This document shows positions 31,360 to 54,258 of a stretch of DNA of 64,000 nucleotides, in pieces; positions within the stretch are counted from its first letter, which is position 1; every line of letters starts with the position of its first letter. The notes beneath the pieces were generated by a model, which did no database searches, was not told the DNA's origin, and was given only the letters and a program-made list of their open reading frames with translations. Origin of the DNA: Escherichia phage vB_EcoM_3HA11; the sequence record MN342150. The stretch is one strand, 5' to 3'. Made by a program: the position numbers and the translations under genes.

Positions 31360-31977
31360 ATGACGATGACAACGTTGAAGGCCATGGCCTTGTCCGTGAC
31401 CTTTACCATTGCCAGCGGGAGTGTGCACGCTTCCCAAAGTACCACCCAATGTGATTACGAATTTTCTGATCAGCAACTTTCAACTATGGCCACTGCCTAT
31501 CACATAGGCAAACAGCAAGACCTTGGTTTCACCCTCGCCGCAATATCATGGAGGGAAAGCCGCGCCGGAGAAGATGTTGTATCCATGCGGAATAACCTGA
31601 AATCGGCTAATATGGGGGCATTTCAAAATCGCGTCCAAACCGTCGGGAAACGGGAGGGATGCAAAACACAGAAGTGTTACGCCAATGTCGCGATCAAATT
31701 ACTGGTCAATCAAGAATATGCTGCCAATGCTGCCCTTGATGAAATGAATTTCTGGCTAGAATATCATAACCAAAACATCCGCAAATCGCTCTCCTCTTAC
31801 AATGCCGGTTTCAGTCGTAACCAAAAATCCAATTCATACGCTGCTGATGTCGTGAAGAAGGCTAAATATCTTCAACGATGTGTGTCTTTCAAAGGCATGG
31901 CAATAAACCCAAAGGTCGACCCAGGAGTGATCGCCATGAATAAGCGCACGATTGAGAAACTCAAGAGGACCCGATAA
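31360..31977 (+). CDS. secreted protein with signal peptide (205 aa)
   Basis: RBS AAGGAA; N-terminus MTMTTLKAMALSVTFTIASGSVHA. Confidence 0.55.
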   Translation: MTMTTLKAMALSVTFTIASGSVHASQSTTQCDYEFSDQQLSTMATAYHIGKQQDLGFTLAAISWRESRAGEDVVSMRNNLKSANMGAFQNRVQTVGKREGCKTQKCYANVAIKLLVNQEYAANAALDEMNFWLEYHNQNIRKSLSSYNAGFSRNQKSNSYAADVVKKAKYLQRCVSFKGMAINPKVDPGVIAMNKRTIEKLKRTR

Positions 31978-32615
31978 TGAATATCACTCCATCTCAGACC
32001 GGATATGAACACTTAATGGTGTTTATTGCGATTCAGGGGGCAAAAGAAGGCATCATCAGTTCTGAATATTCTGGAACGATGCGCCTGGCTGATTATGTTG
32101 CTCCCGAAGCGTTTATCAAGAAATGTATCGACGCATGGTGCCTTTATGCTATCGGCACGTATCCTACTCCTCCGGCAGGTGAGATACTGTTTACCGTTCC
32201 GACCCCAGCCGCTGGCGACACAGACGCGATCTTTGCTGATATGTTGGCCAAAGGTTATCTGGCATATGATAGTGCTCACAATGTCTATGACTTCTCGGCG
32301 TTGAATCGTATCTTCGGATACACCATAACATCCGAAGCCAATATTCCCGACTATGGAATTCTGGCATGGGGTATTGACGGTCTCGGCGCAACATATGCGT
32401 CTTCTGATGTTGGTCCTGTATTGATTGACACAGGTGTGACAATGGAGCAATACATGTCACAATTCCCTCAGCATAATGTTACCGGAAGCGACATCATTAT
32501 TGTCTATCCTGGTTCTAATGCGTTGTCCCGCCTGGTGGACGGCTGGAAGCCTCAGCTGAAGGACATCGTTGCTGGAATCAGATTTCACATCCCTGTCGTC
32601 AATCCCACACCTTAA
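31977..32615 (+). CDS. hypothetical protein (212 aa)
   Basis: TAATG overlap with the upstream gene; no recognisable domain. Confidence 0.5.
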   Translation: MNITPSQTGYEHLMVFIAIQGAKEGIISSEYSGTMRLADYVAPEAFIKKCIDAWCLYAIGTYPTPPAGEILFTVPTPAAGDTDAIFADMLAKGYLAYDSAHNVYDFSALNRIFGYTITSEANIPDYGILAWGIDGLGATYASSDVGPVLIDTGVTMEQYMSQFPQHNVTGSDIIIVYPGSNALSRLVDGWKPQLKDIVAGIRFHIPVVNPTP

Positions 32616-32995: not shown

Positions 32996-33073
32996 GACCC
33001 TGGGGCATATAACGCCCCTTTCTTTTCGCTAATTAAGGGAAACCGCACCGATTTTATAATCAGGAGAATTACA

Positions 33074-35461
33074 ATGGCCATCCCATCTTTCTTGAACTTT
33101 CTTGAAGAGTCTAAACAATTAGACGAAGCGTTTAACTCATCCCCGTATGAATTGACTTTCGGCAAGAAGAACGCTGGCGACATTTTCTTCACATTTGTTG
33201 ATGAAGACGAAAAAGAATTCCGTATTCAATTCTATACCCCACAAGGTCTAGGCAAGAATGTTCGCCAAGTCTTTATCGGTCAGAAGCGTGGTTCAACCTA
33301 TCCAGACGCAATCGGTCGTTTCAAAAACCCAATGCGTGTCATCGCATCCATGATCGAAGCGACTAAACAATTCATGGCGACACCGCTGGGTAAAACCATT
33401 GATGGGTTTGCGATTAACTTCTCCAAGAAAGCTCTAGAACGCGGAACGACGTTACTCCCAAAAATTATTCGTCAATCTGGTCTGAAGCAGAAACTCAACG
33501 TCATGGATCTGACTTATACCCCAATCCCTGACCGCGCCTTCGTATGGGTTGTGCGTAAAGGCAAGGATCCTGCTCAGGTATTTGATGGTCCGAAAATGAA
33601 AGGTGTCACATGGGATGATCCGGACAAAGTCGGTGACGTTCCTGACCAGGCTGCTCGTGACGCCGCACTACAAGGTGACATGGATGATTTGAGCCAAGCC
33701 GTAAATGCCGATTCTCGCTGGATTCTGACCAAAGCTGATCATACTCAGCCTATGCTTGTCTGGTCTGGTAAAGAACGTGGGCGGACTATTACCGCCAATA
33801 TCGCACCTCACGCGAATGAACCTGGTGTGTATGCTGGTAGTATCATGAACGAGAAACGGATCCGCGCTCAATCCCCAGACGCTATTGTACGCCAACTGGG
33901 ATTACCGCAGATCCCTCTGAATATTCTGAATGATTTCACCAAGCAGTCGTCCATCTTCTGGAAAGAGATGACGGGGGATTCTGGAAAAATAGACATGCAG
34001 ACTCTTCCAAAAACCGGTTCTATGGATGATCTGCGCAACCAGGGTTATATCGCCCGCATCTTGGGCATCGTTGATACATATGCTCCTCAGCAAGTCGGCA
34101 TGTATGCTGGTGAAAAATTGGCTCGGGTTGGTGCTGGCAAATATCGAACTTCTGGCGGGTTGGATATTCAAGTCTATTTTTGGGGGATTGTCAACAGCAA
34201 ACTCTCTGTAGAAGTGGTTTCTGATTTATCTGGCAATGAACAGCTGATGCTGGAAGGCGACGTGAAAAACGCGGCTTTTGAAATCGTCAGTGCGATATCC
34301 CGTGCTGCTGATTCTCAGTTCAACGGTGAAGTGGAATGTCGTGTTGTTCCGATCAACGGTGCCCCATACCCGATTCAAAAGATTTCCCGTTCCCAGGGTT
34401 ATTCTTATGTCGATTGTATTTCGTTTACTTTGAAGATCGCCGATGCATTGTTAAATCGATTTACTCTGGGTAAGGCAGTCAAACTCGATCTGATAAAAGA
34501 GTTCCCTCGAACGACGTTTATTGTTCGTTATGACTGGCGCGGCAAAGATACTCTGATGGTCCAGTCTTCTGATGGGAAGACTATCTTCGGCGAAATCAAC
34601 ACAAATTCCAGTGATAACGCTGTCATCACTGCGAACCTGAAAGCCCCAAGCAATGCGAAGATATTTGGTGAAACCGTTCATGGGTTCTCTGTGGCTTGGG
34701 ACTTCCAGTTCCCTGCGGGTAGCCAGCTGCAAGCCGCACGGTTCGTTACGAACGTGACTTACGACTTCGATCGTAATAAGGCCAACATCACGACCATGCT
34801 GACAGAAAATGGCCGAAATGTAGTCAATAGCCGCGGATATGACATTCAGTTATCTGTCAAGTCTGTGCAAGATGCTTTGAATGAGACTTCACAACGCCTG
34901 AAAGACGCTGCGGCTCAATTGAGCCATCTCAGTTCATCAAACTATAACCCGAACAATCTGTTCCTGAATGATATCACCGTCAGTAAGTTTGGTGCAATTA
35001 TGTTCCAAGACAAAGATCTGGCACAGTCCAGAAACCGCACGGTAGTCATTGATGCTTTGGCTCGGGCGAAAGATCAGGTCGCTGGTGGTAAGAATGCAGG
35101 TGACCTGGCCACCTATGCCGGATCCATTCGTGACAGCGCTCCTAATGGACGAGATCTGGATTGGCAGGTATACACAGCCAGTAATGGTACAGTTCTGAAT
35201 GTTGCTTGGGATATCACTTTCCGTCGCAACACAACCGAAGGCGCATATCGTGAATTCAAAGATCAGATCAACCGTGCCAACCAATACCTGCAAACGGTAT
35301 ACAACGACGCGAAATCTAAAGGCTATAATCCCACCGAGCCAAATCTCATGACTATTGAACGCGCTCGTCAATCCGACGAATGGGCTATGAGTAATGGTGA
35401 TAGTGCATACAGTGAATATGAACAATCGCTGGGTGGTAATCTCCAGATCCGTCTGAAATAA
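33074..35461 (+). CDS. large virion internal protein candidate (795 aa) with capsid-targeting-like N-terminus
   Basis: RBS CAGGAGAA; N-terminus MAIPSFLNFLEES shares the F-L-x-F-L-E-E pattern with the three downstream internal-protein candidates. Body unassigned. Confidence 0.6.
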   Translation: MAIPSFLNFLEESKQLDEAFNSSPYELTFGKKNAGDIFFTFVDEDEKEFRIQFYTPQGLGKNVRQVFIGQKRGSTYPDAIGRFKNPMRVIASMIEATKQFMATPLGKTIDGFAINFSKKALERGTTLLPKIIRQSGLKQKLNVMDLTYTPIPDRAFVWVVRKGKDPAQVFDGPKMKGVTWDDPDKVGDVPDQAARDAALQGDMDDLSQAVNADSRWILTKADHTQPMLVWSGKERGRTITANIAPHANEPGVYAGSIMNEKRIRAQSPDAIVRQLGLPQIPLNILNDFTKQSSIFWKEMTGDSGKIDMQTLPKTGSMDDLRNQGYIARILGIVDTYAPQQVGMYAGEKLARVGAGKYRTSGGLDIQVYFWGIVNSKLSVEVVSDLSGNEQLMLEGDVKNAAFEIVSAISRAADSQFNGEVECRVVPINGAPYPIQKISRSQGYSYVDCISFTLKIADALLNRFTLGKAVKLDLIKEFPRTTFIVRYDWRGKDTLMVQSSDGKTIFGEINTNSSDNAVITANLKAPSNAKIFGETVHGFSVAWDFQFPAGSQLQAARFVTNVTYDFDRNKANITTMLTENGRNVVNSRGYDIQLSVKSVQDALNETSQRLKDAAAQLSHLSSSNYNPNNLFLNDITVSKFGAIMFQDKDLAQSRNRTVVIDALARAKDQVAGGKNAGDLATYAGSIRDSAPNGRDLDWQVYTASNGTVLNVAWDITFRRNTTEGAYREFKDQINRANQYLQTVYNDAKSKGYNPTEPNLMTIERARQSDEWAMSNGDSAYSEYEQSLGGNLQIRLK

Positions 35462-35511
35462 ACCATAGCCCCTTCGGGGGCTAAATACATCAAAATCCTT
35501 AGGAGATCATG

Positions 35512-36081
35512 ATGAAACCGTTTATCGAATATTTTAAAGAACAAGCCCAGCAGCCGCAAACTCATGGCGGTATACAAGGCAAAAGTGTAACCATCACTAA
35601 ACAAGCCGATGGAACACAATGGTGCTCCGGCGCTACCGTGACCCAGATCACTCCTGACAATCAGGCCGATGTCTATAACCTGGAATTGACTAATGGCAAC
35701 ACCACTAAAGTGAAACTGACGCCGGACCAGGTTCATGCGGTTTCTGTGGGCAAAGATGTTGTTGCCGTTCATGACGGATACGAATTCTTCTTTGGTAAAG
35801 ACGCCAGCAAAGGTCAGGTCACAGAATCCTATGCTCAAGAACTAGCGAATATGGATAAGATGATCGGTAAAGCGCTGGGCGTTGGCAAATCTCGTAAAAG
35901 CGGTCGTACAGAGTTTGAATATTCCGGTATTCCTGGTATTGGAAAACCTGTCGCAATCGACTTCGGCGGCGAAGACGATCCGTATGTGATCGTCACAGTC
36001 GCTGGTAAACAGCATGACATCAGTAAGGGAAAAACCCTAGCTGTGGACATTGCCAAATATATCGGCGTGAAACCTGTCTAA
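35512..36081 (+). CDS. internal head protein candidate (CTS-bearing)
   Basis: RBS TAGGAGA; N-terminus MKPFIEYFKEQA resembles the T4 internal-protein capsid targeting sequence MKTYQEFIAEA. Confidence 0.55.
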   Translation: MKPFIEYFKEQAQQPQTHGGIQGKSVTITKQADGTQWCSGATVTQITPDNQADVYNLELTNGNTTKVKLTPDQVHAVSVGKDVVAVHDGYEFFFGKDASKGQVTESYAQELANMDKMIGKALGVGKSRKSGRTEFEYSGIPGIGKPVAIDFGGEDDPYVIVTVAGKQHDISKGKTLAVDIAKYIGVKPV

Positions 36082-36090
36082 GGAGGTTGT

Positions 36091-36330
36091 ATGAAAGGGT
36101 TCCCGGATTTCCTGAAAGAGGCGAAGGTTGACCATCGCCGCCTTGGACAACAAGGTATGTACGACATCACTGATGTTGGCCGCCCCGAAAAAGGCGAACT
36201 GATCGACTACTATGATCGTAACGGGGACAAACATCAGGGGAAAGTGAAGTCTGTGAACGCACAGAATATCATGACTCTGACAAACACCAGCACTGGTGAA
36301 ACAGTCAAACTGACTCTGATTAAGCCATAA
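36091..36330 (+). CDS. internal head protein candidate (CTS-bearing)
   Basis: RBS AAGGAGG; N-terminus MKGFPDFLKEAK. Confidence 0.55.
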   Translation: MKGFPDFLKEAKVDHRRLGQQGMYDITDVGRPEKGELIDYYDRNGDKHQGKVKSVNAQNIMTLTNTSTGETVKLTLIKP

Positions 36331-36360
36331 AAGAAACCCCGCTTCGGCGGGGTTTTTGTT
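36331..36360. terminator. bidirectional rho-independent terminator
   Basis: AAAGAAACCCCGCttcgGCGGGGTTTTTGTT between convergent genes (ends at 36330 and 36359). Confidence 0.7.
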
Positions 36361-36964
36361 ACTTCACGTACATACAGACCTGGACCTTCTTGCCTTTGTC
36401 GTTCTTGACTTCTACTAATTTAGAAGCGCCATTCAGCTTGACGACAGTCCCCTTTTCCTTCCCACCACTTGGCAATTCATATTCAATCTCTTCACCAGGA
36501 GAAGGCATGCCAGCGCTTGGCCCCATAACAGCAGAGATCTTGTAACGTGCCATACCAGGGCGACCACCTTTGAAGGCATACCAGCCACCTTCTTGCATGT
36601 CTTTCCACTGTTTGTTACCGTCAACAACAATGGATGGATTACCGAAACCGGCCTTGATACCCAGCAAGTCAATTGTCTTTCCCGACTTGTTGTATTTTAC
36701 GGCAGTGTCACCATCAAACTTGTCCAGCATCTGAGTACTGGCGAACTGCCCGTCTTTGATACCAGAAGCAGCGATAACGTCCTTGGCGTTTGTCAGGACA
36801 ATCTTGCGCCCGTCTGGGGTTTCGAAAGTCACCTTATCACCAGAAACATCGGCGTGGAGGAACGTACCCGCAACGTCTTCTGTTGATTTACCGATCTTGT
36901 CAGACTTGATATGTGCAGACATCGGCGGCGCGGCTTCGGTCAAAAAGTCTTGAAAAGTTTTCAT
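36359..36964 (-). CDS. internal head protein candidate (CTS-bearing)
   Basis: RBS TGGAGAA; N-terminus MKTFQDFLTEA is nearly identical to the T4 IPI/IPII/IPIII CTS (MKTYQEFIAEA), with a Glu-Ala processing-site-like junction. Confidence 0.65.
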   Translation of the reverse strand: MKTFQDFLTEAAPPMSAHIKSDKIGKSTEDVAGTFLHADVSGDKVTFETPDGRKIVLTNAKDVIAASGIKDGQFASTQMLDKFDGDTAVKYNKSGKTIDLLGIKAGFGNPSIVVDGNKQWKDMQEGGWYAFKGGRPGMARYKISAVMGPSAGMPSPGEEIEYELPSGGKEKGTVVKLNGASKLVEVKNDKGKKVQVCMYVK

Positions 36965-37051
36965 TTCGTTCTCCAGTTATATTATTCTATATAGTACCTC
37001 ATAGACCCCATTAACACTAAATACTAGACAGTTCAACAATAGGAAACAATC

Positions 37052-37405
37052 ATGGTAAGCGCGAGTATATTCATCAACCGTGGACTGCTTGCTATAGCCC
37101 ACTCTCATGCCCTCCACTTCGTTACAACTTCCTATGCCAAGCACAAGGCACTCGGGGAGTTCTACGGGGAACTGGAGGACTTGCTGGATACCTTTACAGA
37201 GGCATATATCGGCGCGGGTGGTGTATATGTCCCAGGGTTTGAGAATATTAAACTGTACAACCCAGATCCTATATCGTATGTCAACAGCGTTGTTATCGAC
37301 GTAAACGGAATTTATGGTCAATGTGACAGCCATCTTCAAAATACGCTCGATGAAATCAAAACTTTGTGCTATCAGACCATCTACAAACTGAAGCAATTGT
37401 CTTAA
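37052..37405 (+). CDS. hypothetical protein (117 aa)
   Basis: RBS AGGAAA; preferred over the overlapping minus ORF 36977..37396 on strand context and RBS. Confidence 0.45.
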   Translation: MVSASIFINRGLLAIAHSHALHFVTTSYAKHKALGEFYGELEDLLDTFTEAYIGAGGVYVPGFENIKLYNPDPISYVNSVVIDVNGIYGQCDSHLQNTLDEIKTLCYQTIYKLKQLS

Positions 37406-54228: not shown

Positions 54229-54258
54229 TAAAGCCCCTTCGGGGGCTTTTTAGTTTTT
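54229..54258. terminator. rho-independent terminator (between convergent genes)
   Basis: AAAGCCCCttcgGGGGCTTTTTAGTTTTT. Confidence 0.7.

Follow-up and report, generated by a model that had tools for sequence, protein, structure and literature searches.

We analysed a 64,000-nucleotide stretch of the genome of Escherichia phage vB_EcoM_3HA11 (sequence record MN342150; this whole stretch is hereafter called the window) and concentrated on four adjacent genes at positions 33074–36964, named A, B, C and D here, whose products begin with a common peptide resembling the capsid targeting sequence (CTS) of the phage T4 internal proteins (IPs). The DNA of this region is 88–96% identical to that of many Kuttervirus (Ackermannviridae) phages of Salmonella and Escherichia, such as SJ2, Sajous1, Guerrero and CBA120. 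The four genes are set among replication genes, with the gp46/gp47 recombination nuclease genes on one side and a primase gene on the other. An initial annotation, made from the sequence alone, had described four adjacent open reading frames (ORFs) with T4-like CTS starts, and all of them were found at the coordinates and with the N-termini given there. The genes and their parts are as follows (aa, amino acids).

33074–35461, plus strand: gene A, 795 aa, N-terminus MAIPSFLNFLEES; corresponds to CBA120 orf111, Sajous1 gp214 and Guerrero_93.
33074–33127, plus strand: leader of A (aa 1–18), a predicted propeptide ending L16-D17-E18 before A19.
33083–33109, plus strand: IP-type motif PSFLNFLEE within the A leader.
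33128–33643, plus strand: N-module of A (aa 19–190), with homology to T4 Alt over about the first 180 residues of the latter.
33644–35458, plus strand: variable region of A (aa 191–795), mosaic.
35512–36081 (alternative ATG at 35509), plus strand: gene B, 189 aa, N-terminus MMKPFIEYFKEQA; corresponds to Sajous1 gp215.
35512–35541, plus strand: putative CTS of B (aa 1–10).
36091–36330, plus strand: gene C, 79 aa, N-terminus MKGFPDFLKEAK; corresponds to Sajous1 gp216 and fills a variable slot.
36091–36120, plus strand: putative CTS of C.
36145–36318, plus strand: Tudor/SH3-like barrel of C (aa 19–76).
36359–36964, minus strand: gene D, 201 aa, N-terminus MKTFQDFLTEA; a sporadic accessory cassette.
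36935–36964, minus strand: putative CTS of D (aa 1–10).
36371–36565, minus strand: C-terminal Tudor/SH3-like barrel of D (aa 134–198), with a novel alpha/beta region between the CTS and the barrel.

For gene B, the second ATG (35512) is favoured by its Shine-Dalgarno spacing and by the homologues. Read from there, the protein starts MKPFIEYFKE, which places F4, Y7, F8 and E10 in the T4 register. The tags of B, C and D are in exact T4 register and that of A is offset by +2. Compared with MKTYQEFIAEA of T4-like contigs, the D tag has 7 of 11 residues identical, the other four being conservative changes.

The resemblance is real and highly non-random. A motif derived from the four N-termini, [KRP]x[FYW]x[DENQ][FYW][LIVFM]xE, was found at five places when the window was translated in all six frames, four of them being the N-termini of A–D. 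In the complete Guerrero genome (157,565 bp) the motif was present at ORF starts only in the homologues of A, B and C. Shuffled Guerrero genomes (n = 30) had on average 0.07 such ORF starts, with a maximum of 1.

The initial annotation had proposed comparing the locus across related phages, with loss of the N-terminal similarity in homologues as the outcome that would speak against its idea. Across 37 Ackermannviridae loci taken from GenBank and IMG/VR, the tag was kept in every homologue, including those from Kuttervirus, Agtrevirus, Limestonevirus, Taipeivirus and the Serratia and Erwinia phages. In family D (7 sequences, identity down to 60%), M1, K2, F4, L8, E10 and A11 never vary; position 7 is occupied by F or Y, and no constraint is seen at positions 3, 5 and 9. 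When 27 distinct tags from five unrelated families were pooled, F4 and E10 were invariant, position 7 was F or Y, and position 8 was L, F or I. Amber-suppression mutagenesis of the T4 IPIII CTS has shown that residues 4 and 7 matter for targeting and residues 8 and 10 for processing, and that Asp at position 10 blocks cleavage (PMC9026906). The conserved positions 4, 7, 8 and 10 of the tag coincide with these critical positions. In a profile-profile alignment of families B and D by hhalign, residues 1–17 alone could be aligned (E = 6.6e-5).

The C and D tags have 8 of 11 residues in common, 6 of which are encoded by different codons; therefore, selection acts on the peptide. This bears on the alternative that what the genes share is a nucleotide-level feature of their 5′ ends (recombination joints through which cassettes are exchanged, or an optimized translation start), the peptide itself having no targeting function. 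When the window is compared with phage FEC14, near-identity is seen in the first ~50 nt of D and the sequence upstream, against only ~79% identity in the gene body; a recombination boundary lying at the tag could produce this pattern. Starts of the type MK... are also common in phage genes. Such an origin would leave unexplained why the fixed and variable positions of the tag match the T4 functional map, and why the tag is found in distant genera, on unrelated proteins and, among the matches listed in the scan described below, only together with T4-type head genes. We regard this alternative as very improbable, and the two roles are not mutually exclusive: a nucleotide-level feature can coexist with a targeting peptide. 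As positions 4, 7, 8 and 10 are conserved, selection operates at the peptide level and the tag is the sole similarity between unrelated families, the comparisons support the view that the N-terminus common to these proteins acts like a capsid targeting and processing peptide of the T4 type.

We also scanned IMG/VR for M-K-x-[FY]-x-[DE]-[FY]-[LIVMF]-x-E-A, written as ATG-AAR-NNN-TWY-NNN-GAN-TWY-NTN-NNN-GAR-GC. At least 136 matches were obtained in at least 120 stretches, and 96% of the matches listed were at ORF starts. Many of the listed matches came from T4-like genomes of 165–175 kb, where they read MKTYQEFIAEA... and belong to IPII- and IPIII-type proteins. Among the matches listed, 55 of 120 loci had a T4-core gene (gp23, gp21, gp20, gp18, gp17, gp41 or UvsX) within 14 kb.

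In a phage with internal proteins of the T4 kind, a T4-type prohead core, with a gp22-like scaffold and a gp21-like S77 protease, is expected. The head genes lie outside the 64-kb window and were read in Guerrero, a 95%-identical relative. Pfam searches of Guerrero identified a Peptidase_S77 prohead protease (1.3e-27), a T4_CASP scaffold (9.4e-45) and a Gp23 capsid protein, the Gp23 match of which begins at residue 62. The scaffold has 12 [LI]xE sites where 4.2 are expected (P < 0.0005) and the protease has 7 where 2.1 are expected; the counts in the sheath, terminase, portal and capsid proteins were as expected. The enrichment in scaffold and protease fits a gp21-like cleavage specificity. 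The small, basic 'prohead core protein' of Guerrero (L038:24003–24320, minus strand; 105 aa, very basic) begins MMEITEIATFADFLASRMDE followed by Q, with ...TFADFLASRMDE directly before the Q. The start MMEITEIATFADFLASRMDE|Q therefore contains the tag core FxDFL and then an M-D-E site, and suggests that this protein and the tagged proteins may carry the same core-binding signal.

Next, we considered whether the proteins are found in virions, as the initial annotation had expected. Published virion proteomics covers homologues of A, B and C, and all three were detected in purified particles, contrary to the absence from virions that the initial annotation had named as its other refuting outcome. 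In CsCl-purified virions of Sajous1, 196 spectra came from gp214 (the A homologue), which ranked among the five most-detected proteins (PMC10892097); gp215 (B) gave 32 spectra and gp216 (C) 20 (PMC10892097). Sajous1 is 95.5% identical to the window at this locus. In LIMEstone1, ORF80 (B) is structural, and so are ORF81+82 (A, split in the annotation), with 23 unique peptides and 55% coverage. The authors of that work noted an unexplained cluster of structural genes, ORF78–ORF85.

The Sajous1 proteins gp214–217 have been interpreted as a tail-located 'ferrojan horse' operon that uses host iron uptake for entry, with the roles of tail completion protein, molybdate-binding protein, helicase and ferritin, respectively. 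The proteins are indeed in virions and their genes are co-oriented, and the DUF5856 protein encoded next to them has a Dps-like PHROG match; DUF5856, however, does not carry the tag. Phyre2 confidence was 63% for gp215 and 27% for gp216 (PMC10892097), whereas we obtained no Pfam, PHROG, PDB-sequence or Foldseek support for the assigned functions of A, B and C, and the TonB and FeoB mutants of the same paper were without effect. The operon interpretation also leaves the shared T4-type tag, its conservation pattern and the Alt-family N-module of A unaccounted for. We consider it extremely unlikely; A–C are better read as probable head-internal, injected proteins. The label 'tail completion protein' attached to A homologues found no Pfam, PDB-sequence or Foldseek match, and their PHROG (phrog_3867) is of unknown function. 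A literature search for work linking Ackermannviridae to internal proteins or a CTS found none; papers on phages AG3, phiD3 and Det7 say nothing about these proteins, and a study of S117 tailocins reports no proteomics.

The largest of the four proteins, A, differs from the others in that an 18-residue leader precedes a conserved module. At the leader and its junction, F6, F9, E18, A19, F20 and N21 are invariant in 25 homologues. Residues 31–180 are 89–96% identical across genera, and the remainder is 46–77% identical and differs in length between phages. An exhaustive search of 1.84 billion representatives with the N-module yielded a family of 92 clusters, with proteins of 279–1681 aa, in which the module is always at the extreme N-terminus. 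It always follows a short variable leader ending [LIF]xE and is then introduced by [AS][FL][DN]S.PY; among 53 distant family members, the junction Glu hardly varies. In six clusters the proteins terminate in an ADP-ribosyltransferase domain (PF03496), which by BLASTP matches the T4 Alt catalytic domain with E-values from 2e-14 to 1e-5. T4 Alt itself is a PF03496 protein (5.8e-36).

Direct BLASTP, phmmer and hidden Markov model comparisons of A with T4 Alt gave nothing significant. By hhalign, the N-module profile aligned with a five-sequence alignment of Alt N-termini with E = 5.2e-4 and a score of 31.5 over 157 collinear columns, module positions 10–176 being placed on Alt 4–184. Column-shuffled controls (n = 30) scored at most 24.3, over no more than 50 columns. 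The alignment puts L16-D17-E18|A19 of A on I-T-E6|L7 of Alt, an experimentally known gp21 cleavage site (PMC5694885). T4 Alt starts MELITE|LFDEDTT and its T-even relatives MEILNE|VLDES. The T4 record (L161:13066–13451) describes alt.-1 and alt.-2 as products of an old duplication affecting the first part of alt; MELITE|LFDG is retained in alt.-1, and the Alt N-module has therefore also been duplicated and has decayed in T4.

No ADP-ribosyltransferase (PF03496, R-S-E type) or other Pfam domain was found in A or in the Ackermannviridae variants tested, and no internal repeats were found in A. Because the N-module is homologous and PF03496 is absent, A is described as an Alt-N-module protein without the Alt enzyme; on these profile comparisons, we assign A to the Alt family, lacking the ADP-ribosyltransferase domain, with moderate confidence. 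The AlphaFold2 (AF2) model of A had a predicted local distance difference test (pLDDT) score of 69 overall and about 75–90 in the variable region, and a Foldseek search of this model against the PDB gave no match with E < 1e-3. For A, the earlier FLEE is not the sole candidate site; the relevant cut probably falls at the Alt-type junction, LDE18|A19.

The genomic frame is the same across the Enterobacterales loci examined: SLT-like, DUF7270, (orf98), A, B, [slot], DUF5856, orf205 and primase. The slot after B contains C, a 142-aa cassette, a 58–59-aa cassette or a reverse-oriented D, or is empty. In Klebsiella phages it holds an unrelated 142-aa tag-bearing ORF (MRGFQDFLTEA), in Erwinia and Klebsiella phages a 58–59-aa ORF tagged MKTFQEFLKE, and in Serratia phages an 80-aa ORF tagged MKSFGDYLTE. 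D occurs in 14 GenBank records, scattered over Kuttervirus, Taipeivirus and one Aglimvirinae phage, and forms six 90% clusters in a large protein database. It is missing from the closest relatives of the window and, where present, brings its own hairpin terminator and promoter-like element. A and B were present in the Enterobacterales loci examined, and two Vibrio loci show A paralogues alone; Vibrio phages have two or three paralogues with an A-type N-module. The C-terminal end of B is different in CBA120.

C is homologous to residues 134–198 of D (BLASTP E = 3e-5) and structural matches agree: in BFVD, the D barrel matches C-family proteins of 79–80 aa. C is thus essentially the tag plus a Tudor/SH3-like barrel. 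These results divide two claims of the initial annotation. Its statement that the parts downstream of the tag are mutually unrelated holds for B and D, which align only over residues 1–17, and fails for C and D, which share the barrel. Its 'hypervariable cassette' describes the slot after B and the C-terminal 600 residues of A; as A and B belong to the core of the Enterobacterales loci, the term is only partly right. In Erwinia phage phiEa2809, NW77_067 (L034:9831–10385, plus strand) has the N-terminal half of B fused to a C-type barrel under one tag (MKSFSDFLITEA), and this fusion shows domain shuffling among tagged proteins.

The variability of the locus is relevant to what the proteins do. 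A role against host defences, which the initial annotation had favoured, is pure inference for A–D: searches of the locus proteins in Pfam, PHROGs, PADLOC, the PDB and by fold gave no relevant anti-defence match. The proteins could instead be head-internal and processed and yet serve assembly, DNA condensation or ejection, like T4 gp67/gp68 and the basic IPs. The conserved core status of A and B in the Enterobacterales phages, the 89–96% identity of the A N-module across genera and the abundance of A in virions suit such roles, as does the lack of any anti-defence or defence-related similarity; mature A, C and D are also mildly basic (isoelectric point 8.8–9.1). The mosaic C-terminal 600 residues of A and the swapping of unrelated cassettes between close relatives in the slot after B are harder to reconcile with them, this being the pattern of the T-even IP loci, and family relatives of A bear Alt-type toxin domains. 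We therefore treat the assembly roles as a serious possibility, short of a probable one.

Taken together, we consider it highly likely that A–D are internal head proteins targeted to the prohead core, A being of the Alt family and B, C and D of the IP type. We infer the following course of events. A–D would be loaded into the prohead via the T4-type scaffolding core. B, C and D would each use a 10-residue IP-type CTS, M-K-x-F-x-[DE]-[FY]-[LF]-x-E, in which, to judge from T4 IPIII, the aromatic residues 4 and 7 would direct core binding. Next, the prohead protease of the gp21 type (Peptidase_S77) would cut B, C and D after Glu10, freeing the mature proteins inside the head. In A, the 18-residue leader is followed by the N-module, with a predicted cut at LDE18|A19 as the equivalent of Alt ITE-6|L7, and the mosaic C-terminal part of about 600 residues would occupy the place of the Alt ADP-ribosyltransferase. 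The predicted cleavage sites are E18|A19 in A, E10|Q11 in B, E10|A11 in C and E10|A11 in D, which would give the mature N-termini AFNS[AS]PYELTFGK, QAQQPQTHGGIQGK, AKVDHR... and AAPPMSAHIK, respectively. The mature proteins, A abundantly, would remain in the DNA-filled head and would then probably be ejected with the DNA, like the T4 IPs and Alt. A and B would be core components, and C, D and the alternative slot cassettes accessories with possibly host-specific roles, for example in counter-defence.

Several points weigh against this interpretation. The head genes were read in a relative of the phage. Part of the [LI]xE excess in the scaffold could come from coiled-coil heptads. The candidate cleavage sites of the capsid protein are ambiguous (E30, E41 and E51), the mass on the AG3 gel agreeing best with E30, and most B homologues have Phe at P3 and not Leu or Ile. 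For A, HMMER alone gave E of about 0.016 for the N-module against Alt, so that the homology is carried by the hhalign value of 5.2e-4 against a profile of five Alt sequences, and AF2 models the N-module poorly.

The tag was also observed on other proteins. In marine metagenome contigs with T4-core genes, metabolic enzymes have an 11-residue add-on, MKxFx[DE]F[IL]xEA, before their normal N-terminus. These are adenylate kinases (IMG/VR loci L117, L122, L135 and L151), in which homology to other kinases begins at residue 15–17, a HAD-like protein (L078) and nucleotidyltransferase-like proteins with FGRxNPPTxGH (L039, L051, L093 and L143). Such enzymes may be packaged into heads, or the role of the tag may be wider. 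In proteins of 130–155 aa at L063, L120, L148 and L155, a conserved ...HHGTS... motif comes after a CTS-like tag, and a protein of 154 aa from a Vibrio phage (L032:10319–10783), adjoining the Alt-like paralogues, has ...YHGTN...; a Pfam search with the latter gave no match. These proteins could be small catalytic domains. Also adjoining the Alt-like paralogues in Vibrio phages YC and K444 is a T4 Inh-like 'minor head protein' with ...GDGWE... (L033:14123–14701 and L032:10848–11468), the K444 copy of which starts MASFKLIFEA. Its position is a further hint that the locus collects head-internal proteins.

Other virion-protein genes surround A–D. An SLT-like transglycosylase with a signal-peptide-like N-terminus is encoded at 31360–31977 (plus strand); the annotation of relatives calls it 'RegB'. 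The protein resembles T4 Vs.1, and 31 of the spectra from Sajous1 virions belong to it. A DUF7270 protein, the LIMEstone1 counterpart of which is structural, is encoded at 31977–32615 (plus strand). The gene at 37052–37405 (plus strand) encodes a DUF5856 protein of 117 aa (PHROG 'starvation-inducible regulator', Dps or ferritin-like), which has been found in the virions of relatives (Sajous1 gp217, LIMEstone1 ORF78) and whose N-terminus has no CTS-like tag. Together, the SLT-like gene, DUF7270, A–D and DUF5856 are an island of genes for virion proteins within the replication region. The regulatory features in and around A–D are as follows.

36334–36355, in the gap where genes C and D converge: GC-rich hairpin bordered by runs of A and T, bidirectional terminator-like, found only in D-bearing phages.
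36976–36996, minus strand: promoter-like TACTATATAG upstream of D, which differs by one mismatch from the late-promoter-like ACTAAATA of the family; a putative element.
35467–35488, plus strand: hairpin AGCCCCTTCGGGGGCT, which follows A and overlaps the late-promoter-like CTAAATAC located upstream of B.
33029–33037, plus strand: CTAATTAAG upstream of A, resembling elements before the Guerrero portal and tail-tube genes; a putative element.

The 16-nt hairpin AGCCCCTTCGGGGGCT is identical at 35467–35482 and 54232–54247 of the window. In this phage family the late-gene upstream element ACTAAATA[CT] precedes the scaffold, sheath, neck and VrlC genes. Motifs like it were observed upstream of the SLT-like gene, B and DUF5856, and variants upstream of A and D. 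The late-promoter motif CTAAATAY occurs 6 times in the window where 2.9 are expected, and 8 of 100 shuffles reach 6, a weak enrichment; the placement of the motif is no more than suggestive.

If A–D are internal proteins as proposed, the T4 capsid-targeting and Alt packaging system would extend to the Ackermannviridae, a family much used for biocontrol and diagnostics of Salmonella and E. coli. Unsupported published labels ('tail completion protein', 'ferrojan horse operon') would be replaced for one of the most abundant virion proteins, and exact predicted cleavage sites are supplied for A–D. The 10-residue tag might serve as a means of bringing foreign proteins into Kuttervirus heads. The accessory proteins, namely C, D and the alternative cassettes, make a short list of candidates against defence systems, and the newly delineated Alt-like N-module family has diverse unknown cargo. 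We tentatively entertain a further idea, which we rate as possible rather than probable, that the N-module with its [LI]xE-ended leader is a general, portable 'carrier' for packaging and injecting large polymorphic cargo in T4-type heads. Vibrio phages have 2–3 paralogues of this family per genome, and six of its clusters bear Alt-type toxin domains. If the carrier idea were true, the module family would be a repertoire of capsid-delivered effectors, analogous to polymorphic toxins, and the mosaic C-terminus of Kuttervirus A would be an uncharacterised effector and no structural part.

The closest known system is that of T4 IPI, IPII and IPIII with their CTS (Mullaney & Black 1996; reviewed in PMC9026906 and PMC3012670). 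As in T4, a tag of ~10 residues, M-K-x-[FY]-x-[DE]-[FY]-[LI]-x-E-A, stands on otherwise unrelated small proteins at one locus with the same critical positions conserved; a T4-type scaffold and S77 protease are present in relatives, and A–C homologues are in virions. Unlike the T4 IPs, the mature parts have no sequence similarity to any T-even IP, position 4 is always Phe here, where T4 has Tyr, Leu or Phe stands in place of the T4 Ile at position 8, and B is a conserved core gene and not a variable one. In tblastn and protein searches, A and D matched Ackermannviridae-type phages alone, and no T-even IP mature domain was among the matches.

T4 Alt is a head-packaged ADP-ribosyltransferase, present in about 40 copies, which gp21 cuts at ITE-6 and LTE-619 and which is injected with the DNA (PMC5694885). 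A is like Alt in its leader ending [LI]xE directly before an N-module of ~170 residues and in being large and abundant in virions, and six clusters of its N-module family bear the Alt-type PF03496. It differs in lacking an ADP-ribosyltransferase or other recognisable catalytic domain, and in its leader, which has 18 residues with an IP-like aromatic motif (the Alt leader has 6).

In the giant phages phiKZ, 201phi2-1 and SPN3US, N-terminal propeptides likewise target head proteins, a gp21-related protease cuts after Glu, and conserved N-termini are common to diverged paralogues; their propeptides, however, are mostly of 60–130 residues with AxE/SxE sites, whereas those described here are of the T4 type and of 10–18 residues. 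In the Dar system of phage P1 (DarA, DarB, Hdf and others), capsid-packaged and injected proteins, some of them very large, have anti-restriction roles, although its head assembly system and incorporation hierarchy differ from the T4 type. No sequence relation to the Dar proteins emerged, in an analysis that made no search aimed at them. By analogy, Dar-like anti-restriction is the kind of function that we propose for the accessory cassettes.

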